Below, piece by piece: positions 5,075 to 30,710 of a DNA stretch of 64,000 nt. Origin of the DNA: Escherichia coli 042. GTDB lineage: Bacteria > Pseudomonadota > Gammaproteobacteria > Enterobacterales > Enterobacteriaceae. The first letter of the stretch is position 1, and each line of letters opens with the position of its first letter. The DNA is taken from the NCBI RefSeq assembly GCF_000027125.1, contig NC_017626.1; one strand, given 5' to 3'. Made by a program: the position numbers and the translations under genes. Under the pieces are notes generated by a model. It did no database searches. It had not been told where the DNA came from and was given only the letters and a program-made list of their open reading frames with translations.

Positions 5075-5105
5075 TGCCGGATAGATGATTACATCGCATC
5101 CGGCA
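5075..5105. terminator. Hairpin between convergent trmL and cysE
   Basis: Inverted repeat TGCCGGAT...ATCCGGCA. Confidence 0.5.
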
Positions 5106-16203: not shown

Positions 16204-17061
16204 CTATTTTCTTGAAAGGAAAATTCTCAGCGCCTGCATTTTTGCCCCTAAAGTGTTACTCCTGAAGCAGCGAAACAAATCGAACCATTTTCCTCTCCCC
16301 AGATAGTTTAGGTTGAAGAGATCGGAACGTTTGTAATAGCACATGACAAAGATGCCCTGGTCATCGTCCACAATGTTATTGTTTAGGGTTATTTTTTGAC
16401 TTTCCAGAACTAATTTATAGAATTCTTTCCATTTATGCTGTGAACCAACAATTGCGCCACCAATAATATATACATGATTGCCAATCATGAAATCAAAAGC
16501 CTGTTGTTGAGATGTGACAGTAAGCTCTTTTTTTATAGTGAAAAGATGCATCTTATTTTCATCAAATGGGAAATCCCAAATTTTCAATCCTCGAGTTACA
16601 TTTGGCTTACGGCAATAGCCAAAATCTATCCACGCAACAAGAGGCGTTTTCACTAAGCCCATGTTGATAGCTTTATTTACAAAATAGGCCTTAAGGTTAC
16701 ATACCAAAACATACTCTGGTGACCAGTACTCTGGGTTTTTTAATTGTCGAGGCTCAAGTCTATTTGTAAACGACTCATCTTTTTGAATTTTTTCGATACG
16801 ACTTCTGATATATCTAAATTTCTTTTTTATATCGATAACGATAACCGTTGTTGGTTTTCCGTTGCGAATCGCTTCAACCCTTGATTTCAAATCGGGAGAA
16901 GTGAAAATAATCATCTCATTTTCAAGTGCGGCCAGACGCTCAAAGTAACTAAAATAAACATCAACTGAACGAGCTAGTTTTTCACGGAACCCTTTATTAG
17001 CAGTCCAATCCCCTCTACCAATGTCAAAATATGCAGTGATAATTGTGGTGGATGATTTCAT
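16204..17061 (-). CDS. htrL: HtrL/YibB family protein
   Basis: AT-rich gene beside the waa cluster; translation MKSSTTIITAYFDIGRGDW... (285 aa from the internal Met). Confidence 0.8.
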   Translation of the reverse strand: MKSSTTIITAYFDIGRGDWTANKGFREKLARSVDVYFSYFERLAALENEMIIFTSPDLKSRVEAIRNGKPTTVIVIDIKKKFRYIRSRIEKIQKDESFTNRLEPRQLKNPEYWSPEYVLVCNLKAYFVNKAINMGLVKTPLVAWIDFGYCRKPNVTRGLKIWDFPFDENKMHLFTIKKELTVTSQQQAFDFMIGNHVYIIGGAIVGSQHKWKEFYKLVLESQKITLNNNIVDDDQGIFVMCYYKRSDLFNLNYLGRGKWFDLFRCFRSNTLGAKMQALRIFLSRK

Positions 17062-17364
17062 TACTAATAAGACCATTAATATAAAAAAAGAATTATATCA
17101 TAAATATTAACAGAATGTATACTGTATATTATCCATTCAAATGTTTCAGTTATTTATCATACATCGGAATATTGATACTAAAGCACTATTCACGTGCAAA
17201 TCCAACATCCGCCATGAAGGACTGGCTAAAACCCAAACTAGTTTGTTGCAATTAGCATCCTTGCATCTCTATGTAAAGGGCTGAAGGGATTCGGATGTGA
17301 TGGTATGATTACAGACATTCGTGTCTGAGATTGTCTCTGACTCCATAATTCGAAGGTTACAGTT

Positions 17365-18297
17365 ATGATCATCGTTACCGGCGGCGCGGGCTTTATCGGC
17401 AGCAACATCGTTAAAGCCCTGAATGACAAAGGCATCACCGATATTCTGGTGGTGGACAACCTGAAAGACGGCACCAAGTTTGTGAACCTGGTGGATCTGG
17501 ATATCGCGGACTATATGGATAAGGAAGACTTCCTGATCCAGATTATGGCTGGCGAAGAGTTCGGCGATGTCGAAGCGATTTTCCACGAAGGCGCGTGCTC
17601 TTCCACCACCGAGTGGGACGGCAAATATATGATGGATAACAACTATCAATACTCCAAGGAGCTGCTGCACTACTGCCTTGAGCGCGAAATCCCGTTCCTG
17701 TACGCTTCTTCTGCAGCCACTTACGGCGGTCGCACCTCCGACTTTATTGAATCCCGCGAATATGAAAAACCGTTGAATGTCTACGGTTACTCAAAATTCC
17801 TGTTTGATGAATATGTTCGCCAAATCCTGCCTGAAGCGAACTCGCAGATTGTTGGCTTCCGCTATTTCAACGTTTATGGACCGCGTGAAGGCCATAAAGG
17901 TAGCATGGCGAGCGTCGCTTTCCATCTCAACACTCAGCTTAACAACGGTGAATCACCGAAGCTGTTTGAAGGTAGCGAGAACTTCAAACGTGACTTCGTC
18001 TATGTGGGCGACGTAGCAGATGTAAACCTGTGGTTCCTGGAAAATGGCGTTTCCGGTATCTTCAACCTCGGCACCGGTCGTGCAGAATCCTTCCAGGCAG
18101 TAGCAGATGCTACGCTTGCTTATCACAAGAAAGGGCAGATCGAATACATTCCGTTCCCGGATAAACTGAAAGGCCGCTATCAGGCGTTCACTCAGGCTGA
18201 TCTGACAAATCTGCGCGCGGCGGGTTACGACAAACCGTTCAAAACCGTTGCTGAAGGTGTAACGGAATACATGGCCTGGCTGAATCGCGACGCATAA
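17365..18297 (+). CDS. hldD: ADP-L-glycero-D-manno-heptose 6-epimerase
   Basis: 310 aa, [20 protein letters not shown]ossmann start. Confidence 0.94.
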
Positions 18298-18306
18298 GAG
18301 CTCTGC

Positions 18307-19353
18307 ATGAAAATACTGGTGATCGGCCCGTCTTGGGTTGGCGACATGATGATGTCGCAAAGTCTCTATCGCACGCTCCAGGCGCGCTATCCCCAGGCGA
18401 TAATCGACGTGATGGCACCGGCATGGTGCCGTCCATTATTATCGCGGATGCCGGAAGTTAACGAAGCTATCCCTATGCCTCTCGGTCACGGAGCGCTGGA
18501 AATCGGCGAACGCCGCAAACTGGGTCATAGTCTGCGTGAAAAGCGCTACGACCGCGCCTACGTCTTACCCAACTCCTTCAAGTCCGCATTAGTGCCTTTC
18601 TTCGCGGGTATTCCTCATCGCACCGGCTGGCGCGGCGAGATGCGCTACGGTTTACTTAACGATGTACGCGTGCTCGATAAAGAAGCCTGGCCGCTAATGG
18701 TGGAACGCTATGTCGCGCTGGCCTATGACAAAGGCATTATGCGTACAGCACAAGATCTGCCGCAGCCATTGTTATGGCCGCAGTTGCAGGTGAGCGAAGG
18801 TGAAAAATCATATACCTGTAATCAATTTTCGCTTTCATCAGAACGTCCGATGATTGGCTTTTGCCCGGGTGCGGAGTTTGGTCCGGCAAAACGCTGGCCA
18901 CACTACCACTATGCGGAACTGGCAAAGCAGCTGATTGATGAAGGTTATCAGGTGGTTCTGTTTGGCTCGGCGAAAGATCATGAAGCGGGCAATGAGATTC
19001 TTGCCGCTTTGAATACCGAGCAGCAGGCATGGTGCCGGAACCTGGCGGGGGAAACACAGCTTGATCAAGCGGTTATCCTGATTGCAGCCTGTAAAGCCAT
19101 TGTCACTAACGATTCTGGCCTGATGCACGTTGCGGCGGCGCTCAATCGTCCGCTGGTTGCCCTGTATGGTCCGAGTAGCCCGGACTTCACACCGCCGCTA
19201 TCCCATAAAGCACGCGTGATCCGCCTGATTACCGGCTATCACAAAGTGCGTAAAGGTGACGCTGCGGAGGGTTATCACCAGAGCTTGATCGACATTACTC
19301 CCCAGCGCGCACTGGAAGAACTCAACGCGCTATTGTTACAAGAGGAAGCCTGA
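18307..19353 (+). CDS. waaF: LPS heptosyltransferase II
   Basis: 348 aa GT9-family sequence; hldD-waaF-waaC operon order. Confidence 0.92.
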   Translation: MKILVIGPSWVGDMMMSQSLYRTLQARYPQAIIDVMAPAWCRPLLSRMPEVNEAIPMPLGHGALEIGERRKLGHSLREKRYDRAYVLPNSFKSALVPFFAGIPHRTGWRGEMRYGLLNDVRVLDKEAWPLMVERYVALAYDKGIMRTAQDLPQPLLWPQLQVSEGEKSYTCNQFSLSSERPMIGFCPGAEFGPAKRWPHYHYAELAKQLIDEGYQVVLFGSAKDHEAGNEILAALNTEQQAWCRNLAGETQLDQAVILIAACKAIVTNDSGLMHVAAALNRPLVALYGPSSPDFTPPLSHKARVIRLITGYHKVRKGDAAEGYHQSLIDITPQRALEELNALLLQEEA

Positions 19354-19356
19354 CGG

Positions 19357-20349
19357 ATGCGGGTTTTGATCGTTAAAACATCGTCGATGGGCGATGTTCT
19401 CCATACGTTGCCCGCACTCACTGATGCCCAGCAGGCAATCCCAGGGATTAAGTTTGACTGGGTGGTGGAAGAAGGGTTCGCACAAATTCCTTCCTGGCAC
19501 GCCGCTGTTGAGCGAGTTATTCCTGTGGCAATACGTCGCTGGCGTAAAGCCTGGTTCTCGGCCCCCATAAAAGCTGAACGGAAAGCGTTTCGTGAAGCGC
19601 TACAAGCAGAGAACTATGACGCAGTTATCGACGCTCAGGGGCTGGTAAAAAGCGCGGCGCTGGTGACGCGTCTGGCACATGGCGTAAAGCATGGAATGGA
19701 CTGGCAAACCGCTCGCGAACCACTGGCAAGCTTGTTTTACAATCGTAAGCATCATATTGCGAAACAGCAGCACGCCGTAGAACGCACCCGCGAACTGTTT
19801 GCCAAAAGTCTGGGCTATAGCAAACCGCAAACCCAGGGCGATTATGCTATTGCACAGCATTTCCTGACGAACCTGCCTACAGATGCTGGCGAATATGCCG
19901 TATTTCTTCATGCGACGACCCGTGATGATAAACACTGGCCGGAAGAACACTGGCGAGATTTGATTGGTTTACTGGCAGATTCAGGAATACGGATTAAACT
20001 TCCGTGGGGCGCGCCGCATGAGGAAGAACGGGCGAAACGACTGGCGGAAGGATTTGCTTATGTTGAAGTATTGCCGAAGATGAGTCTGGAAGGCGTTGCC
20101 CGCGTGCTGGCCGGGGCTAAATTTGTAGTGTCGGTGGATACGGGGTTAAGCCATTTAACGGCGGCACTGGATAGACCCAATATCACGGTTTATGGACCTA
20201 CCGATCCGGGATTAATTGGCGGGTATGGGAAGAATCAAGTAGAGTGTCGTTCTACAAGTATGTCTCTTGCAGATTTGCCAGCTCAAACCGTTTTTCAAAA
20301 TTTAAATCTTGAAATAATAACCAATAAGTTGACATCGGAGATAAGATGA
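19357..20349 (+). CDS. waaC: LPS heptosyltransferase I
   Basis: GT9 family; C-terminal residues differ from K-12 as remembered. Confidence 0.9.
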   Translation: MRVLIVKTSSMGDVLHTLPALTDAQQAIPGIKFDWVVEEGFAQIPSWHAAVERVIPVAIRRWRKAWFSAPIKAERKAFREALQAENYDAVIDAQGLVKSAALVTRLAHGVKHGMDWQTAREPLASLFYNRKHHIAKQQHAVERTRELFAKSLGYSKPQTQGDYAIAQHFLTNLPTDAGEYAVFLHATTRDDKHWPEEHWRDLIGLLADSGIRIKLPWGAPHEEERAKRLAEGFAYVEVLPKMSLEGVARVLAGAKFVVSVDTGLSHLTAALDRPNITVYGPTDPGLIGGYGKNQVECRSTSMSLADLPAQTVFQNLNLEIITNKLTSEIR

Positions 20350-21554
20350 CCTCAACATTATTTTTCTCTCTCGAGAAAAAAAACTGGATAGCGTACTGGA
20401 ACAGAGCTCTCGTATTCTTATTCATTACCACCTATTTTTTGGGTGGGATTACAAGGTATAAACATCTTATTGTTATTCTTATGACAATAACGACAATCGT
20501 CTATCTCTGCAAACGGCCAAAACACTATCTTTCACTATTTAAAACATGTCTTTTTGGTAGTGTTGCCATATTAACTATTGCTGCATTGCTATCACTTCTT
20601 CAATCCCCAGATGCAGGTGCTAGCATGAAGGAAATTTTCAAAGCTATCATTGAAAATACTTTACTATGCACAATAGCAATACCGGTCATATTGAGAGACG
20701 AGAAAAGAGAAGATGTCGAAAAAATCGTTTTCTTCTCATTTATAAGTGCGTTGGGCTTACGTTGTTTTTCTGAATTGATTGCCTATTATAAGGACTATCA
20801 ACAAGGGGTAATGCCATTTGCAGATTATAGACACCGTAGCATTTCTGACTCGATGGTCTTTTTATTTCCTGCATTGTTAAATCTCTGGCTTATCAAATCA
20901 GCAAAATACCGCATTTCTTTTGCGGTTCTAAGCGTTATTTTTATTTTTCTGATATTAGGAACTTTATCCAGAGGAGCCTGGCTTTCCGTGTTAGTCATTG
21001 GATTAATATGGATTCTGATGTTTAAACAATGGAAGTTACTATTAGTAGGAGTAATGGTTTCCATCATTGCATTATCGGTTATTTTCACACATAAGGAGAT
21101 GACCGCAAATCTAACGTATAAACTTCAACAAACTAATAGTTCTTATCGCTATGCAAATGGTACTCAAGGCAGCGCACTCGATCTAATATTAGAAAATCCT
21201 GTTATTGGTTACGGTTACGGTAACGTTGCATATAAAGATGTCTATAATAAACGTGTCGTTGATTATCCAGAATGGACCTTTAGACAATCGATAGGGCCAC
21301 ATAATTTTGCGCTATTCATCTGGTTTGGCACTGGTTTATTAGGGCTGATAAGTCTTATGATGCTATACTGCGCAATATTGAAAGAGTGTATAAAAAATGG
21401 CGTCCAGAATAAAAACCGCTCACCATATAATGCATATTATATAATCTTACTATCTTTTATAGGTTATTTTGTTATCCGTGGAAACGTAGAACAAATTGAA
21501 CCAAATTTATTAGGCGTTTACGCCGGCTTATTATTAGCAATGAAAAACAAGTAA
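20346..21554 (+). CDS. waaL: O-antigen ligase
   Basis: 402 aa AT-rich polytopic membrane protein after waaC. Confidence 0.85.
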   Translation: MTSTLFFSLEKKNWIAYWNRALVFLFITTYFLGGITRYKHLIVILMTITTIVYLCKRPKHYLSLFKTCLFGSVAILTIAALLSLLQSPDAGASMKEIFKAIIENTLLCTIAIPVILRDEKREDVEKIVFFSFISALGLRCFSELIAYYKDYQQGVMPFADYRHRSISDSMVFLFPALLNLWLIKSAKYRISFAVLSVIFIFLILGTLSRGAWLSVLVIGLIWILMFKQWKLLLVGVMVSIIALSVIFTHKEMTANLTYKLQQTNSSYRYANGTQGSALDLILENPVIGYGYGNVAYKDVYNKRVVDYPEWTFRQSIGPHNFALFIWFGTGLLGLISLMMLYCAILKECIKNGVQNKNRSPYNAYYIILLSFIGYFVIRGNVEQIEPNLLGVYAGLLLAMKNK

Positions 21555-21567
21555 AAAAAATAAAAAA

Positions 21568-21590
21568 GGCTGCATAATGCGGCCTTTTTA
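21568..21590. terminator. Bidirectional terminator between waaL and the convergent outer-core operon
   Basis: Hairpin GGCTGCA-TAA-TGCGGCC then TTTTTATTT. Confidence 0.6.
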
Positions 21591-21591
21591 T

Positions 21592-22734
21592 TTATTCAAA
21601 CCAATTATGAATGACCTCTTCGAATCTTTGAGTTACGCCATCCCAACTGTAGTGATCAAACACAAAATCCTGACCTTGCTTTGCAACTGCTGTTAATTCA
21701 GGATTCGCTAACGTTTTTAAAATATCGCTGCTTATGGAGTCTGCAGTCATAGGTTCTTTTAAATGGAATCCCGTAGTATTTTCTTTGACAAATTCCGTCA
21801 TCCCCCCACGCGTACTCACTAAAACAGGCTTACCAGCCCCCATAGCTTCAATTGCCACCATGCAAAATGGTTCCTGGAACTGGGAAGGAATGACAACTAA
21901 ATCTGCCAGTGGGTAATAACAATGCATCTTTTCAGGCGGTATGCTTCCTAACATAATGCAACGATCCTTCAAACGTTTTGCAATTTCCCTGACATTGTGT
22001 TGATATGCACCTTTGTCACTTTTACTCATTTCTGTATAATCACCAATCACAACTAATTTTAAATTTTTGTGAGCAACGGCCAATTTTTCGAATGATTGCA
22101 TCAACAGTAATATGCCTTTGTCAGGGACGATACGCCCAGCATAAAAAATAATTTTCTCTTCAGGGGAGATATTAAGTTCGCTTCTAGTGATCGGCTGAAA
22201 AGTAGATTGATAGGTTTCTAAATCAATTCCATTTGGTACAATCTCAATATCTGCATTTGCTAAATAAGATTGGTAATACTTTTTCAAGTATAAACTAGGC
22301 ACTATCATTTTAACATTTTGCTCAAGCAATTTTGGTTCAAATGCATTATGCATATGAATAACCACTCTTGCCTGAGGAGCTCGCTTACGAATTTGAGTGT
22401 ATAGCTTCATGCTATTATGAACTACAATAACACTTTCTTTCGTTATAGGAAAATCATGGGCAATATTCAATATTCTCTGTGAATATGGTAGAGGATCAAG
22501 TCTTGTCCATTTTTGAAATAACCGCTTATATATGCGACTGAATCCAACCCTATGAATACTACAATTATCATTAACAAAGGTGTAATTTGAGTATCCTGGA
22601 TTCTTGATACAAACAATGCGATTTGGGAAATTGGTACGCTGAGCAACCTGATACATCCACGTTTCAACAGCGGCCGCTCCGCGGGGAGGAATTGAAAAAA
22701 TAGGAGTAACTGTAAATATTATTTTATCAACCAT
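21592..22734 (-). CDS. Outer-core glycosyltransferase, GT4 family (WaaD-like of R3-type cores)
   Basis: 380 aa GT4-like sequence; last gene of the waaQ operon, convergent with waaL. Confidence 0.65.
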   Translation of the reverse strand: MVDKIIFTVTPIFSIPPRGAAAVETWMYQVAQRTNFPNRIVCIKNPGYSNYTFVNDNCSIHRVGFSRIYKRLFQKWTRLDPLPYSQRILNIAHDFPITKESVIVVHNSMKLYTQIRKRAPQARVVIHMHNAFEPKLLEQNVKMIVPSLYLKKYYQSYLANADIEIVPNGIDLETYQSTFQPITRSELNISPEEKIIFYAGRIVPDKGILLLMQSFEKLAVAHKNLKLVVIGDYTEMSKSDKGAYQHNVREIAKRLKDRCIMLGSIPPEKMHCYYPLADLVVIPSQFQEPFCMVAIEAMGAGKPVLVSTRGGMTEFVKENTTGFHLKEPMTADSISSDILKTLANPELTAVAKQGQDFVFDHYSWDGVTQRFEEVIHNWFE

Positions 22735-22742
22735 CTCGAATA

Positions 22743-23756
22743 TTAACCTTTCATAACATTATATTTAATTGCTGTAAAAACACCATTGAGAAATTTTTTC
22801 TGGTAAAGCAAGTGTTTATATTTTTCTTTGTACTCATGTTTTTTAACAGCTTTTTTATAAGGTATATTTCTCCATGGAGATATATTATAAATATTACGAA
22901 AATAATCTGCAGATGCGTAGTCCGCCCAATCATGCCATGGCTTAGTTACACCAGTATAATGTATGAAGACAGTTTCATCATTAATAAACTGGGTGTAATA
23001 TTCACTATTTTTTTCTTCAAATTCTGACTTTATAGTATAAATACAATTATATTTTCTCGGTAATATTTTAGCATGATGTAAAAACATTAAGTTTAAAATA
23101 TCTTGATCCGGATACTTTAATTTTTTGATAATTGACTCATCTGATAATAGATCAAAAAATTTCTCCGTTAGTCTTTGTTGTAACCATTCCCGTAAATTAA
23201 TATACATTACACCAGAGTTAAAATAGCTACCGTTAAAATCCTCATTACATAAACGCTCAGCGCTTTTACTTTGCATAGCATCTACATCAATTACCACAGC
23301 CCCATATTCATCTTTAAACTCTAATGCTATTAACTCGTTCAATGAACCCTTACAGACGATATCAGCATCAAGATATAATAATGAATCCAATCGCGCAGAA
23401 AAATAATCAAATGAAAGCAAACGATAATAAATAGATACTGGCCAGATATTTGATTGAGGTAGCGCCTTCAATGGCTCAGAATCAATATGATATAATTTAA
23501 TTACTGTTTGATACTTCGTTGCTAATTGTGATAATAATTCAATATACTCTTTGTCTAAGTAATCAGCGATTATGTGAAAGGTAAATTTGTTTTGTTTATT
23601 ATTTTCAAGAATTGAAGCAATTGAAATCGCAGCCCCAACCTGGTAGTTCTCATCAATACCCCATGAGACATTAAACGTTTCCCGTTCATCAAGTTTAACG
23701 GGGCGCTTGTCCAGTTCAATTATATCTTTAAATTGAGTAAGATGTTTAAAATCCAA
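22743..23756 (-). CDS. waaJ: Outer-core GT8-family glycosyltransferase (WaaJ-type)
   Basis: 337 aa GT8 (LgtC/RfaJ-like) fold; AT-rich. Confidence 0.7.
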   Translation of the reverse strand: MDFKHLTQFKDIIELDKRPVKLDERETFNVSWGIDENYQVGAAISIASILENNKQNKFTFHIIADYLDKEYIELLSQLATKYQTVIKLYHIDSEPLKALPQSNIWPVSIYYRLLSFDYFSARLDSLLYLDADIVCKGSLNELIALEFKDEYGAVVIDVDAMQSKSAERLCNEDFNGSYFNSGVMYINLREWLQQRLTEKFFDLLSDESIIKKLKYPDQDILNLMFLHHAKILPRKYNCIYTIKSEFEEKNSEYYTQFINDETVFIHYTGVTKPWHDWADYASADYFRNIYNISPWRNIPYKKAVKKHEYKEKYKHLLYQKKFLNGVFTAIKYNVMKG

Positions 23757-23780
23757 TTTAATTACCCTTCATCATAATCA

Positions 23781-24488
23781 TTATTTGCTCTTCAATCCTA
23801 GTTTTACTTTTACATCCCTGATTGCTTTTTTAATTTTCTTTTTGAATATGAGATATGTATAGCCAAAGTCTTTCAATTCATTTTTTATATTATAGTGCCG
23901 TTCAAGATCAATGCGATCTTTTGCTTTTAAAACTGCGGTTGTTTTTTTACCTGAAAGGTCAATTAGTCTTAAACCTTTTTCGGATACTATAAAATTTCCT
24001 TTATGAGGATCGCCAGACACCATTCCATGCTGATGCAACTCTTTTATCGATTCTGATAATTGTTCCTTCAGATCTTCAGAAATTTCCAAATACTCATTTA
24101 ACCCGACACCTTCAATATACTCAATGAGCATAATATAATAATGCGCGAAATTTAATGTTTTACGTTCAGCAAGCAAAAAATAGTCATTAATTGATTGAAT
24201 GCCTTCACCACGTACCCGATCGGTTTGATAAATTAAATTTTCATAATAATCTTTTTTTACGCAAGATTTTAAGAAACGTTCGATCATTTTATGCTTTGGC
24301 GCATAAACTTTAAGTACAAGAGGTCCACGAGCAGTGTCAATAAGAATGACTTTAGTATCATCAATAGAACGAAAAACTTTTAATGTTTTAACCCTGCAAG
24401 TTAAAAAGTCATTCAGCACTTGCTCATAAAAGGGATCATTATCTTTTATGAAAACTTTCAACCCATTTATCGTTTTATTATATATCAT
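23781..24488 (-). CDS. waaY: LPS core heptose II kinase
   Basis: 235 aa small kinase-like protein between two GT8 genes, as waaY is in waa clusters. Confidence 0.75.
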   Translation of the reverse strand: MIYNKTINGLKVFIKDNDPFYEQVLNDFLTCRVKTLKVFRSIDDTKVILIDTARGPLVLKVYAPKHKMIERFLKSCVKKDYYENLIYQTDRVRGEGIQSINDYFLLAERKTLNFAHYYIMLIEYIEGVGLNEYLEISEDLKEQLSESIKELHQHGMVSGDPHKGNFIVSEKGLRLIDLSGKKTTAVLKAKDRIDLERHYNIKNELKDFGYTYLIFKKKIKKAIRDVKVKLGLKSK

Positions 24489-24513
24489 AATGAATTATTT
24501 TAACCTTAAATCT

Positions 24514-25521
24514 TTAGAAGCATTTTTCTTTATAATACTTTAAATAATTAAAAATGCCTGCCATATAATGCTTTTGTTTAAATTTATGTTTTGCACAATA
24601 CCGATACTGATTGCTATTCACAGGTTTAAGTAAATCTTCTTTACACCACGGAGAAGCTGCTTTGGCGATCAAAAAACTACGTGACACCGGATAATCAGCC
24701 CACTCATGCCAGGGTTTTGTAGGTCCCACATAGTGTATAAACACGGTGTCATCATTGACTGGATTATCAACTTTGTCTTTTAATTCATAGTTAATACTAT
24801 ATCGGGTATTATATTTCCCCGAAATAAACTTCACTTTACCATTCAATAATACATTCAGTACATCTTGATCAAGGTGGGTGATTTTACTTACCCAATCTGG
24901 GTCACGCAACATTTCAATAGCTTTTGACGAAATGTTATTTAGATTCCACTCATCAATATTTATCAGCAAAAAACCAGCATTGAAATATCCAGAAGCTAAT
25001 TGTGGTGTAGTTAATACCGAGGCTCGATTCTGCCACCATTCAACATCTCTTTCAGCTACAACTGCGGCAATTTCATTAGTAGAGAATTGATAATCTAAGA
25101 GTTCTTTAATACTACCCTTGCAAGCAATATCTGCATCAAGGTATAGTATTTTTTCATGTTTATTATAGAAATAATCTGCAATTATAAATCGAAAATATGT
25201 AGCGTAAGTCCAGTTTTTCGTGCTTGGTAATGACTTCAGCTTATCACAATTGATAACATAAATATTAATTCTTGAATTATATTGTTTTGCTAAATCGGAA
25301 AAATATAACTTGTCTTTATCACTGATATAATCTGTGAAAACATGAAATTCACAAGAGATTTCGCTATTGTTTAATAGAATAGATGCGATGGCTACACCAC
25401 ATCCAAAAAGAAAATTTCTGTCAATACCAAATGCGATATCAAGAGTATTTTTAGATCTTATATTTTGATAATGAAAGTTATACTCAAAAAGGATGATGTC
25501 ACTATCATTGAGTTGAGACAT
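24514..25521 (-). CDS. waaI: Outer-core GT8-family glycosyltransferase (WaaI/WaaO-type)
   Basis: 335 aa GT8 sequence directly downstream of waaP. Confidence 0.7.
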   Translation of the reverse strand: MSQLNDSDIILFEYNFHYQNIRSKNTLDIAFGIDRNFLFGCGVAIASILLNNSEISCEFHVFTDYISDKDKLYFSDLAKQYNSRINIYVINCDKLKSLPSTKNWTYATYFRFIIADYFYNKHEKILYLDADIACKGSIKELLDYQFSTNEIAAVVAERDVEWWQNRASVLTTPQLASGYFNAGFLLINIDEWNLNNISSKAIEMLRDPDWVSKITHLDQDVLNVLLNGKVKFISGKYNTRYSINYELKDKVDNPVNDDTVFIHYVGPTKPWHEWADYPVSRSFLIAKAASPWCKEDLLKPVNSNQYRYCAKHKFKQKHYMAGIFNYLKYYKEKCF

Positions 25522-25563
25522 ATTTATTCTGTATCCAAAATTTTGGCAAAAATAAGTTACGGG

Positions 25564-26370
25564 TTACAACGATTTTCTAATCGTTCTTTCCCTGATTTTT
25601 GTGGCTTTTGCTTCTGCTTGCGACAGCAGTCCTTGTTCCTGCTTGAGAATGTCTTTAAGCGGGGCGGCAAAATACACTTTCATAAACCGCCAGATATCCC
25701 GCTGAGTCAGGCCAATATTCATCGAAGAAAAATAAAGCCCAATAAGATCTTTATCGCGCCAACGACGTGGAACGCGCGTGCGAAGCTGCGCCCGGTGCAG
25801 GTCAATTACCGAAATTTTTAACTCCTCTTCCTTACCGGAAAAAGGCAAGTGCAGCAGGAAATGACAGATATAACAGTCACGGTGGTTAATGCCCGCAGCA
25901 TGCATATCGCGCACCATCATCGCGACACGCTTAATAAGCATACGCTTTACGCGAACATCTGGAGGGTTAGTCGCCCAGTCAGCACAGTAATCTTCCAGAC
26001 TGATGGTTGGTGTCAGATCTTCGGTTATAATAAACGAGGTTCTGGTGAGCGGATTAATGCCTTTTTCGCCGAATGCCACCCCATACATAGTATCAACGCC
26101 GACATCCCGCAGTCGATGAATCGCATTCCATTCGCGGTCTGCGCCTAATACTGGCATCCGCAATGAGAGTAAATTTTTGATTATCTCTTTCAGGGTCGTG
26201 CCGCGATGCCATTTGAGAAAATAGCTTTTGCCCGCCATTTCAAAGCGCAGAGTACGGCGAGTTTCCAGTTCACGAAATACCTCACCCTGCAAAGTTTTAA
26301 CTTCCTCAAAAGGATCTTTTCCGCGCCATAACGTGGCAAACGGCTCTTTAAGTTCAACCATCCAGACCAC
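25564..26370 (-). CDS. waaP: LPS core heptose I kinase
   Basis: 268 aa, [21 protein letters not shown]... Confidence 0.9.
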
Positions 26371-27478
26371 CCGTTATGATATCCGCCGCTTTCTCTGGCA
26401 GACTGTATAAATCTTGTGTATCAGCATAATGTCGCGCATTTTCCGCCCAGGCCTGGCGCAATGAAGATTGCGTTAACGCTTTGCGTAAAATCTCATTCAA
26501 TGTTTCCTGGCGGAATGGCTCAGCAATAGCCTCGCCACAATTGGCCTCGACAATATAAGGCGCATAGCCACAAACGGCTGTTGTTAGTACCGGTAATCCT
26601 GCAGTAATCGCTTCCAGCAGCACAATTCCCGCCGCTTCCTGGTAGGCAGGATGCAGTAATAAATCCGCCGCCGCCATTAATTCCGAGACATCGTTGCGCC
26701 CCGAGAAGAAGTGAACATTACTGCGCACGCCGCGTTTTTCTGCCAGCGCCTCAAATTTTCGCGGTTTATCCTGCCCAACAACATATAGCAATGTGTTGTG
26801 GCGCAGCGAATCCGGTAACGAAGCAAGTGCTTCAATGGAACGATCGACACCTTTACGCGTGAAGTCTGAACCGACCTGCAACAATAAATATTGTTGTTCG
26901 GTTATTCCATTCTTCTTACGGAAGATTTCACGGCTATTGGCTGGCTGCTGGCTATATTTACGATCAGGATAAATCCCCGGTGGCAGAATATGAAAACGCT
27001 CCACTTCAGTCTGATAATGTTTCTGGAAATCGGCGATTTGCTTATCTGTCAGCATCAGCAGCTGTGTCGGCTTGCCCTGTTCGAAGGTTGCCCGCTCAAA
27101 GGCGGCATAATGGCGATAACGTGACGTCAGGCGATAGAAAAAGCCTTTTTCCTGCGCTACTTTCTCGGCATAACAAACATCAGCGGCATAATAAACGTCC
27201 AGCCCCGGCATTTTGTTGAATCCAACGACTTTATCGACGGGATGTTCGCGTAAATGTTTTTGCACCCAGGCAAAATACTCCGCATTGCGCCCGTGATTGG
27301 TATGCGATTTAACCGGCACTTTGATCAGTTCAAATACATCAGGGCATTCGCCTTCCCACGACTGGGCATAAACCCGAACATGATGACCTCGGGCGGCGAC
27401 TGTCTGAGCAATACGCATAAAATCGCGCTGCAAACCGCCAAAGGGAAAATATTTATATAAACAAAAAGCAACGATCAT
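26354..27478 (-). CDS. waaG: LPS glucosyltransferase I
   Basis: 374 aa GT4 sequence ([20 protein letters not shown]...). Confidence 0.92.
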
Positions 27479-28533
27479 AACGACGTACCTGTCGTGGAGG
27501 AGGGCAGTAATTTATCGACAGCAGCAATGACATCTGCCGCCGGAATAACCGAAAGATACATCTCATTTCGGTCACGCTGATCGCGCGTTGGCATTTCCCG
27601 GTAATCTCCCGCCCAGAATTGAATCATGTTATTTGACCAGGGACGCCAGAAAATATGGTCTGTCGCACCAAACAGCGATATCAGCGGCGTATTAACTGCA
27701 GCGGCAATATGCGCCGGTGCGGAATCAACGCCAATAAACAGCTGGGCATGATCGATTAACGCACCAAGTTCCGGGAAGGTCACCTTTCCAGCCAGCGCCG
27801 TTACTGGTGGCGTCTGGCATCCCTGCGCAATTTCATTGACGCAGACCAGATCGTCTTTATCTGGGCCGGACGTCAGAACGACTTCATAACCACGAGCATG
27901 TAAGGCATCAATCACAGCGGAAAACTTGGCGTTGTCCCAGCATTTGAAGATTTGCCGCGCCGTAGGTTGGATAACCACATAATTTTGTCCAACACCAGCG
28001 TGATCAAGTTCGCGACGCATACGTTTCCAGCTTGCAGGCGGGTAACTCATGGTTGTCTGCTTCACCAACGATTCAAGTCCCAATGGCGACAGCACGGATA
28101 AGTTACTTTCCACCACATTTCCCCCCTGCAACGGCACCAAATGAGTGAAACTATTACGCCAAAAAGCAGACTGCCGATGATGATAATCCTGGGAAATTTT
28201 CACACGGGCATTTAATAAGCGCACCAGTATAGCAACCATCCATTGATCGGTAAGATTAACGATAAGGTCATACTTATTGGCACGTAATACCTTGATGAGA
28301 TGAAAAAAGTTGGCAATTTTTTCTGCGGCTTTTGCTTTTTTATTTTTTATGCCGTAGAGCGCGTTAATCTCTGGATTTTCAGATAGGATCGGGATGGTGT
28401 CCTGATAAAGCAGCACATCGATTTTTGCGTCAGGGTAATTTTTTTTCAGCGAACTAATGACGGGAGTAGTTAATAACATATCCCCATGAAAACGCATCTT
28501 AATGAGCAAAATTCTTCGAAATGGCTTATCCAC
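27475..28533 (-). CDS. waaQ: LPS heptosyltransferase III
   Basis: 352 aa GT9 sequence; first gene of the waaQ operon. Confidence 0.9.
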   Translation of the reverse strand: MDKPFRRILLIKMRFHGDMLLTTPVISSLKKNYPDAKIDVLLYQDTIPILSENPEINALYGIKNKKAKAAEKIANFFHLIKVLRANKYDLIVNLTDQWMVAILVRLLNARVKISQDYHHRQSAFWRNSFTHLVPLQGGNVVESNLSVLSPLGLESLVKQTTMSYPPASWKRMRRELDHAGVGQNYVVIQPTARQIFKCWDNAKFSAVIDALHARGYEVVLTSGPDKDDLVCVNEIAQGCQTPPVTALAGKVTFPELGALIDHAQLFIGVDSAPAHIAAAVNTPLISLFGATDHIFWRPWSNNMIQFWAGDYREMPTRDQRDRNEMYLSVIPAADVIAAVDKLLPSSTTGTSL

Positions 28534-28582
28534 AAGTAACTCTTTTTGTTGAGATTATCCGATTAAGGTGAAGCAGAAAAAG

Positions 28583-28594
28583 CACGCTACCGCC
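28583..28594 (-). promoter_or_regulatory. ops element (GGCGGTAGCGTG) in the waaQ leader
   Basis: Plus strand reads CACGCTACCGCC, the exact reverse complement of the 12-nt ops RfaH-recruitment motif, about 50 bp upstream of the waaQ start. Confidence 0.8.
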
Positions 28595-28945
28595 CCAGGC
28601 TCAACAGCTACCTGAATACTGATACCGCACTGATATTGACGCGCTAGTGTATCACTTCTTTCGCGGCAATCCGACCCGAATGATTTTTAAGCACATTGTT
28701 GATTTTCAATAAAGAAATCAATCAAATAAAATCATTAGCAACTATATTCTTTTACTGTTGCTCTGCGATTCCTTCCTGCACGTACTGCAGAAATCAATGA
28801 ATCGCATAAAAATACAAAAAAAGTATAGATGTTCAGCAAGAATTGGCGGGTAAATTGCTATTTAAGTCAAAAACGGGAAAAGTAATGGTAAAGCCACAGC
28901 TAAATACATAGAATCCCCAGCACATCCATAAGTCAGCTATTTACT

Positions 28946-30710
<1,765 letters not shown>

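Follow-up and report, generated by a model that had tools for sequence, protein, structure and literature searches.

The stretch of DNA analyzed here (the window, 64,000 nucleotides from Escherichia coli 042) contains a waa (LPS core) locus whose variable cassette is flanked by the conserved genes hldD-waaF-waaC on one side and by the conserved genes waaP-waaG-waaQ on the other. On the left flank, the ADP-glyceromanno-heptose 6-epimerase gene hldD (17365-18297, plus strand; rfaD in the annotation of strain 118UI) showed 99.4 to 100% amino acid identity in all core types, and the conserved inner-core gene waaF (18307-19353, plus strand), encoding heptosyltransferase II, showed 99.4 to 99.7%. 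The conserved hldD-waaF-waaC-waaL operon is headed by hldD. The heptosyltransferase I gene waaC (19357-20349, plus strand) encodes 330 amino acids in both the window and O157, with a length of 993 nt versus 957 to 981 nt for the annotated rfaC of the other core types; its last 112 nt (20238-20349) are R3 specific and AT rich (GC, 0.339), and its stop overlaps the start of waaL by 4 nt. On the right flank, all on the minus strand, waaP (25564-26361), the conserved heptose I kinase gene, showed 97.0 to 99.2% identity with R1, R3, and R4 versus about 84% with K-12 and R2, and its allele is, as judged by these identities, of the kind common to R1, R3, and R4. The glucosyltransferase I gene waaG (26354-27478) was 98.7 to 98.9% identical to R1, R3, and R4 and 88 to 90% to K-12 and R2, while waaQ (27475-28533), the heptosyltransferase III gene and the first of the waaQ operon, was 98.3 to 98.9% and 72% identical to the same two sets. 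Divergent from waaQ lies the conserved Kdo transferase gene waaA (28946-30223, plus strand), with 99.5 to 100% identity in all core types.

Downstream of waaP, the ORF map together with Pfam and NCBIfam scans revealed a GT8 gene, a WaaY kinase gene, a second GT8 gene, a GT4 gene, and then a convergent waaL, exactly the order proposed by the earlier, sequence-only reading of this DNA. The R3 gene content and order, waaQ-G-P-I-Y-J-D, is therefore present, with waaL ending the convergent hldD-waaF-waaC operon, and the organization is the same as that of O157:H7 strain FRIK804. The R3-type O-antigen ligase gene waaL (20346-21554, plus strand; 402 amino acids) was recognized by Wzy_C (E value, 2.2e-21) and by the NCBIfam RfaL equivalog (689 bits versus a cutoff of 277). 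The remaining four genes lie on the minus strand: the R3 waaD (21592-22734), encoding a GT4 glycosyltransferase of 380 amino acids (Glycos_transf_1; E value, 2.7e-34); waaJ (22743-23756), a GT8 glycosyltransferase of 337 amino acids named after the RefSeq product; the R3 allele of the heptose II kinase gene waaY (23781-24488; 235 amino acids; Pfam WaaY E value, 6.6e-93; NCBIfam RfaY equivalog, 388 bits versus a cutoff of 248); and waaI (24514-25521; RefSeq name, waaO), encoding a GT8 LPS alpha-1,3-galactosyltransferase of 335 amino acids (NCBIfam equivalog NF011718, 616 bits versus a cutoff of 461). The Pfam Glyco_transf_8 E values of the two GT8 genes were 8.5e-74 and 3.2e-63, the latter for waaJ. 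Regarding the roles of these enzymes in R3, PMC9927288 assigns the HexIII glucose to WaaJ and the HexII galactose to WaaI and, citing Kaniuk 2004, has WaaD place a glucose substituent on the HexIII glucose.

A cluster of this type might also have decayed, with a pseudogene or an inactive enzyme leading to a truncated core or rough LPS, and waa pseudogenes do occur in other strains: rfaY of L002 is interrupted by an internal stop, and UM146 has a short ligase besides a frameshifted GT2 gene. Here, however, all five ORFs are full length, match their O157 orthologues end to end, and equal them in length (402, 380, 337, 235, and 335 amino acids), the motifs DxD (GT8) and E-x7-E (GT4) are retained (DAD within LYLDADIVC in the WaaJ translation and EPFCMVAIE in that of WaaD), and copies of the cluster with 100% identity are carried by several independent isolates, making decay very unlikely.

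Two putative regulatory elements accompany these genes. A palindromic GC-containing hairpin, AAAAAGGCTGCATAATGCGGCCTTTTT (21563-21589), a terminator-like match with 12 pairs, flanked on opposite sides by an A-run and a T-run, sits between two stop codons in the 37-bp gap separating the convergent waaL and waaD, and we infer that it probably acts as a bidirectional intrinsic terminator. In the waaQ leader, 50 nt ahead of the start of waaQ, lies the ops element GGCGGTAGCGTG (28583-28594, minus strand). It was the sole match in the window, where chance alone would give 0.06. From the well-established function of ops and RfaH, this element is expected to be an RfaH recruitment site. A promoter scan of 20200-29000 gave 26 hits versus 30.0 ± 5.4 in shuffled sequence; given the lack of any excess, no internal promoter is claimed.

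The limits of the type-specific DNA were set by blastn against the R1, R4, K-12, and R2 loci. Homology to the R1, R4, and K-12 loci stops at 20237, inside waaC, and the right junction falls at 25564 or 25668, with no junctions besides the standard ones against all five types. The resulting cassette (20238-25563; 5,326 bp) comprises the waaC tail, waaL, waaD, waaJ, waaY, and waaI, in place of which the other core types hold unrelated or about 65% identical sequence. The range given earlier (20346-25521) spans the start of waaL to the start of waaI; the type-specific DNA is slightly wider. At 33.3%, the GC content of the cassette was the lowest in the 64 kb, compared with 48 to 54% in the flanks, and no non-overlapping 5,326-bp segment of the window fell below 0.440 (mean, 0.497; standard deviation, 0.028). 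The sequence-only reading had described the outer-core genes and waaL as AT rich, and this was borne out gene by gene: GC was 0.352 for waaL, 0.373 for waaD, 0.304 for waaJ, 0.309 for waaY, and 0.321 for waaI, versus 0.526 for the stretch running from hldD through the conserved portion of waaC, 0.477 in waaPGQ, and 0.544 in waaA. Such low GC in the variable core genes has been published as a general property that the five core types have in common (PMC8715443) and is thus no peculiarity of the window. Low GC combined with sharp junctions is the recognized mark of a cassette that was acquired horizontally long ago and is swapped among lineages through recombination in the conserved flanks; both the cassette-like exchange and the low GC are already published.

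To assign the core type, the window was compared with the R3 locus of O157:H7 and with R1, R2, R4, and K-12 loci; published primers, applied independently, typed the comparison loci correctly. For R3, O157:H7 and the published primers stood in for the sequence of the prototype F653, which we take to be GenBank AF019745. O157:H7 and EHEC strains have been described as R3 (PMC8715443, PMC13293308). Over their full length, the five type-specific proteins were 97.3% (WaaL), 99.2% (WaaD), 97.9% (WaaJ), 97.9% (WaaY), and 98.8% (WaaI) identical to those of O157:H7, and at most 58% identical to proteins of R1, R2, R4, or K-12. WaaL reached 51% with R2 and had no match in R1, R4, or K-12; the WaaD-type GT4 protein reached 57% with a WaaK-like protein of R2 and about 22% with WaaG elsewhere; and identities to the other types were up to 44% for WaaJ, 51 to 57% for WaaY, and 54 to 58% for WaaI. 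None of the five proteins thus had its best match in R1, R2, R4, or K-12, in agreement with the R3 type proposed earlier. In addition, no homologue of RfaS, WaaB, WaaZ, WaaU, WaaX, or the WaaL of R1 and K-12 was detected in the 64-kb window, and waaV is absent from the locus, the R1 WaaV matching only waaH (32%), which lies outside it.

The typing primers, taken from PMC13293308, gave a concordant result. The published R3 pair (waaD to waaJ) has exact sites at 22652-22671 and 23650-23672, yielding the published product size of 1,021 bp, while the other seven typing primers (R1, R2, R4, and K-12) have no site in the window at up to three mismatches. Moreover, the waaD, waaJ, and waaI knockout primers of an R3 strain (PMC9927288) fell on the expected gene junctions with 0 to 2 mismatches per 32 to 83 nt (blastn-short); the primer-embedded R3-strain sequence mapped to the window in this way amounts to about 490 nt and is a sample only. 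Considering these results, the region 20238-25563 is almost certainly a canonical R3-type variable cassette of the E. coli waa locus, in intact form; no finding spoke against this assignment.

As the nearest other type, R2 requires separate consideration, either as the type of the locus itself or as one parent of an R2/R3 hybrid. R2 alone among the other types has a detectable WaaL homologue and a WaaD-like GT4 protein (51% and 57%, as above), its DNA similarity to the window continues beyond the usual junction to 20498, and hybrid waa loci (K-12/R2) are on record (PMC13293308). Nevertheless, R2 identities of 51 to 58% are far below the 97 to 99% found with O157:H7, and waaB, waaZ, the R2 GT8 gene after waaP, and the R2 primer sites are all missing from the window. 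A blastn search for mosaic or hybrid structure against all five types gave no mosaic breakpoints, and the whole 13.5 kb aligns with O157:H7 as a single colinear, ungapped-style block at 98.2% identity. An R2 or R2/R3 hybrid locus was therefore rejected on protein identities, primer sites, and blastn junctions, and we give it practically no credence beside the R3 assignment.

The R3 locus of the window is not identical to that of O157:H7, from which it differs at 249 positions (2 of them gap positions) over the 13.5 kb, or 1.8%. Per-gene DNA divergence was 1.5 to 2.4% in the cassette and, in the flanks, 3.3% for hldD, 2.6% for waaC, 2.3% for waaP, and 2.3% for waaA; with roughly 2% divergence in both, the window carries an ordinary allele. 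Among 5,426 complete E. coli genomes, 1,363 (about 25%) contain the segment 20346-25521 at an identity of at least 95%, each time as a single, chromosomal copy. These genomes form two identity bands, namely, 176 at 99% or more, the group of the window, and 1,187 O157-like genomes at 95 to 99%. The two bands, together with 11 substitutions in WaaL and 7 in WaaJ relative to O157, could be taken to mean that the former group is a functionally distinct R3 sub-variant with another ligase or transferase specificity. We consider this highly improbable and rejected it, because the divergence in the cassette equals that of the flanks, as in ordinary divergence between lineages rather than in a separate cassette, and also because the gene content is the same and the published R3 primers fit without mismatch. 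Given the DNA divergence of the cluster and the WaaL changes, an enzyme specificity identical to that of O157 is only assumed here.

By analogy with the characterized R3 system, the steps of core assembly can be proposed as follows. Transcription of the waaQ operon (waaQ-G-P-I-Y-J-D) would begin upstream of waaQ and proceed through an RfaH-dependent, ops-containing leader. The R3 outer core consists of GlcI, an alpha-1,3-Gal, and an alpha-1,2-Glc bearing a Glc substituent, with GlcNAc on the Gal. WaaG would add the first outer-core glucose (glucose I) to heptose II, WaaI the alpha-1,3-galactose (HexII), and WaaJ the alpha-1,2-glucose (HexIII), onto which WaaD would transfer a further glucose. 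In the inner core, WaaP and WaaY would phosphorylate heptose I and heptose II, respectively, and WaaQ would add heptose III. Finally, WaaL, encoded at the end of the convergent hldD operon, would ligate undecaprenyl-linked O antigen to the finished core.

The GlcNAc side branch on HexII of R3 is made by WabB, which is encoded outside the waa locus. We take pO157p80, which has a GT4 annotation, to be WabB; by tblastn, no WabB orthologue was found in the window, the best match of pO157p80 being waaD (24%). A megablast search with wabB (pO157p80) placed it on plasmids in 547 of 550 cases, and since the usual location of wabB is elsewhere, a negative result for these 64 kb is uninformative about the genome. 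As the branch enzyme is not encoded in the window, the complete R3 structure is not asserted for this strain. The R3 cassette occurs in 1,363 genomes, a close wabB homologue in 548, and any blastn-detectable relative, including capU, in 1,039, counts that leave room for R3 lineages lacking a pO157-type wabB. The source lineage may, as a tentative and rather less probable case, be one of these, with a core devoid of the GlcNAc branch or with the branch added by a divergent capU-like enzyme.

Core type sets phage and predator recognition, the attachment site of O antigen, and the binding of anti-core antibodies, and a correct R3 call therefore helps to characterize the strain. For biology at large the call brings nothing new, R3 being one of five long-established E. 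coli core types: the R3-type locus was identified correctly, yet it is ordinary and already known.

Compared with other core-type loci, those of R1 and R4 (waaQGPOTYW plus waaV or waaX) share with the window their waaQGP alleles (97 to 99%) and the left junction at 20237. They differ in having three GT8 genes, accompanied in R1 by a GT2 gene and in R4 by a GT25 gene. Their waaL follows waaV or waaX on the minus strand, together with the waaQ operon, and its product bears no detectable resemblance to the WaaL of the window. The GT8 proteins of the window are 35 to 55% identical to those of R1 and R4, and WaaX, an R1 WaaL homologue, and the primer sites for the 842-bp (R1) and 380-bp (R4) amplicons are lacking. 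The K-12 locus (waaQGPSBOJYZU plus waaL) has in common the frame of hldD-waaFC, waaQGP, waaA, and a convergent waaL, but its rfaS, waaB, waaZ, and waaU are without homologues in the window, the primer sites for its 1,442-bp amplicon are missing, and its WaaL shows no detectable similarity. In K-12, rfaS and waaB follow rfaP, and the window has neither, consistent with the contrast to K-12 noted in the sequence-only reading. That reading also set the window apart from R2, which holds, but it placed waaS after waaP in R2, which is wrong: in the R2 locus examined, a GT8 gene follows rfaP, and K-12 RfaS has no match there. This GT8 gene has been named wabA (PMC13293308). The R2 locus, with waaK, waaZ, waaY, waaR/J, waaO, waaB, and the GT8 gene after waaP, resembles the window in having waaL after waaC on the same strand, a related GT4 gene (57%) last in the waaQ operon, and a related ligase (51%). 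Four of its genes are additional or different (waaZ, waaB, the GT8 gene wabA, and waaK where the window has waaD), its waaQGP alleles share about 72 to 88% identity with those of the window, and neither homologues of waaB and waaZ nor the primer sites for the 610-bp R2 amplicon occur in the window. The R3 locus of O157:H7 (waaQGPIYJD plus waaL), in contrast, agrees with the window in genes, order, strands, ORF lengths, and junctions with conserved DNA, and differs from it in alleles only, evenly over cassette and flanks.

The gene map of the waa region was drawn from the ORF list of the window together with the RefSeq annotation of strain 118UI, in which the corresponding stretch is 99.7% identical; protein families were assigned by Pfam and NCBIfam scans. 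The ORF list and annotation placed hldD (17365-18297, +), waaF (18307-19353, +) and waaC (19357-20349, +) on one side, and waaP (25564-26361, -), waaG (26354-27478, -), waaQ (27475-28533, -) and waaA (28946-30223, +) on the other. The ORFs in between were identified as the ligase gene waaL (20346-21554, +; Wzy_C in Pfam, RfaL equivalog in NCBIfam), the GT4 gene waaD (21592-22734, -; 380 aa, Glycos_transf_1), the GT8 genes waaJ (22743-23756, -; 337 aa) and waaI (24514-25521, -; 335 aa), both with Glyco_transf_8 and the C-terminal domain of that family, and the kinase gene waaY (23781-24488, -; WaaY and RfaY equivalog). This map matches the order given in the sequence-only reading, in which waaP is followed by a GT8 gene, a WaaY-like kinase gene, a second GT8 gene and a GT4 gene, with waaL convergent. 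Since the intergenic gaps are only 8 to 42 bp, no further gene is concealed between these genes. The ORFs of the type-specific cassette (20238-25563) are intact and equal in length to those of O157, and the translations contained a DxD motif (LYLDAD) in the GT8 proteins and an E-x7-E motif in the GT4 protein.

To assign the core type, the whole hldD-waaA span was used as a query, one locus of each architecture represented in the matches was fetched, and these loci were labelled independently by in-silico PCR with the typing primers of PMC13293308. Products of 380 bp (L002), 842 and 841 bp (L003 and L004), 1,442 bp (L006), 610 bp (L007) and 1,021 bp (L001 and L008, the latter from O157:H7) marked the loci as R4, R1, K-12, R2 and R3, respectively; O157:H7 and EHEC strains are R3 (PMC8715443, PMC13293308). 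The window yielded the exact R3 product of 1,021 bp (22652-23672), and the other seven typing primers had no site in the window with up to three mismatches allowed. When the window proteins were compared with these loci by tblastn, identities to O157:H7 were 97.3% for WaaL, 99.2% for WaaD, 97.9% for WaaJ, 97.9% for WaaY and 98.8% for WaaI, against at most 58% to any other type (WaaL, 51% in R2 and no match in R1, R4 or K-12; WaaD, 57% to the R2 GT4 protein; WaaJ, 44%; WaaY, 57%; WaaI, 58%). Hence none of the five had its best match in R1, R2, R4 or K-12, and the R3-type gene set proposed earlier was borne out; R2, the nearest other type, was clearly excluded by its WaaL and WaaD identities and by its primers, which lacked a site. 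In addition, no homologue of K-12 RfaS, WaaB, WaaZ, WaaU or WaaL, R4 WaaX or R1 WaaL was found in the window, and the sole match to R1 WaaV was waaH (32%), outside the waa locus. The homology parts of the primers by which waaD, waaJ and waaI were deleted in an R3 strain (PMC9927288) aligned to the window where expected, at the gene boundaries, with 0 to 2 mismatches each. The accompanying statement that R2 carries waaS after waaP did not hold, as the primer-verified R2 locus has a GT8 gene there (wabA in PMC13293308) and K-12 RfaS was unmatched. Judged by sequence, the locus belongs to the established R3 core type, with all testable sequence-level defining features present.

Homology to the R1, R4 and K-12 loci ended at 20237, 112 nt before the waaC stop, and the WaaC C-terminal tail therefore belongs to the type-specific block. 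This core-type junction within waaC leaves an AT-rich, R3-specific stretch of 112 nt (20238-20349, +; about 37 codons), and in R3 the end of waaC and the beginning of waaL share 4 nt. WaaC of R3 has 330 aa (993 nt), whereas the annotated rfaC of other types is shorter (957 to 981 nt). On the right, the R1 and R4 loci were homologous again from the waaP stop (25564) onward, the K-12-type and R2 loci from 25668. No mosaic breakpoints, IS elements or pseudogenes were seen in the waa region of the window. The locus of strain Ecol_448 (L005, 4693-13694) carries the K-12-type set waaL, waaU, waaZ, waaY, rfaJ, waaO, waaB and rfaS, yet the published K-12 primers, at exact match, yielded no product from it. 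Its waaG and waaQ are alleles of the kind common to R1, R3 and R4, with 98.6 to 98.7% identity to the window, in contrast to 72 to 90% for the K-12 alleles, and the allele switch lies inside waaP at about window position 25668. This mixed locus shows cassette exchange via recombination in the conserved flanks.

The GC content of the five type-specific genes was 0.30 to 0.37, compared with 0.526 from hldD to waaC, 0.477 in waaPGQ and 0.544 in waaA, in agreement with the AT-richness first noted for waaL and the outer-core genes. The cassette (5,326 bp) had a GC content of 0.333, and because no window of the same size elsewhere in the 64 kb fell below 0.440, its AT-richness is real and large. Low GC in the variable waa genes is already described: in all five waa loci, GC is that of the core genome at the ends and falls markedly in the variable genes at the centre (PMC8715443). 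Just upstream of hldD, yibB (htrL; 16204-17076, -) is likewise AT-rich (GC, 0.37); it is missing in some strains, with kbl directly followed by rfaD in the locus of Ecol_448 and in that of R2.

How the locus works can be proposed by analogy with an R3 system already characterised (PMC9927288, which cites Kaniuk et al. 2004) and from general waa-operon knowledge. A single ops element, GGCGGTAGCGTG, was found in the waaQ leader (28583-28594, - strand; 0.06 expected by chance), and transcription of waaQGPIYJD would be RfaH-dependent; the gap separating the convergent genes waaL and waaD holds a hairpin of 12 pairs with A and T runs on its sides (21563-21589). WaaG would add glucose I, WaaI the HexII galactose, WaaJ the HexIII glucose and WaaD the glucose substituent on HexIII, with the heptoses presumably phosphorylated by WaaP and WaaY and the O antigen ligated by WaaL. 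The work of Kaniuk from 2004 is said to place the ligation site on the glucose added by WaaJ. The RefSeq name of the R3 WaaD protein is "lipopolysaccharide N-acetylglucosaminyltransferase", which derives from NCBIfam subfamily NF012028 (766 bits; cutoff, 618). R3 WaaD is a glucosyltransferase in PMC9927288 (citing Kaniuk 2004) and shares only 57% identity with the WaaK-like GlcNAc transferase of R2; the name in the databases has probably been transferred too widely.

Between yicC and dinD, the window carries an integrase-bearing insertion of 20.1 kb (37947-58051). The closest relatives by waa locus (118UI and ECA64) lack it, and it is rare in E. coli, with at least 80% of its length in only 32 of 5,426 complete genomes. 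Its gene content was taken from the annotation of a 99.7%-identical copy in strain SCU-316, which includes a tyrosine integrase adjoining yicC, an AntA/AntB antirepressor, an Ash-family protein, a large TOPRIM/DUF927 primase, DUF2824, P22-like DNA ejection/injection proteins, a PerC-family regulator and a Doc-family toxin. Neither capsid nor tail genes were noted in this annotated copy, which suggests that the insertion is a prophage remnant or an integrative element resembling a satellite.

The stretch 20346-25521 was complete at ≥95% identity (megablast) in 1,363 of 5,426 complete E. coli genomes, always chromosomal and in a single copy; carriers include O157:H7 and O104:H4 strains (98.2%). 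The cassette of strain 118UI is 100% identical to that of the window; 118UI also has IS1397 between trmL and cysE, absent from the window (about 5088-5090), and is therefore a different strain from that of the window. Carriers fell into two identity bands (n = 176 at ≥99%; n = 1,187 at 95 to 99%), for which a second kind of R3 cassette was considered. Along 13.5 kb, the window aligns colinearly with O157:H7 and shows 249 differences from it, and per-gene divergence is alike in the cassette (1.5 to 2.4%) and the conserved flanks (1.1 to 3.3%); a second kind was thus rejected in favor of ordinary lineage divergence. The GlcNAc on HexII is made by an enzyme not encoded in the waa locus. The pO157 gene pO157p80 (L013, 47660-48766) is of the GT4 family and adjoins a deacetylase gene; we take it to be wabB, whose product attaches the GlcNAc side branch in the R3 core. 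No orthologue of this candidate was found in the window. It matched 548 genomes by megablast, with 547 of 550 places on plasmids, and with distant relatives, many of them capU at 64 to 75% identity, 1,039 genomes by blastn. As the pO157-type gene occurs in far fewer genomes than the R3 cassette, many R3 strains may lack a close wabB. The R3 assignment is correct, and the R3 locus is already known and common, being present in ~25% of complete genomes.
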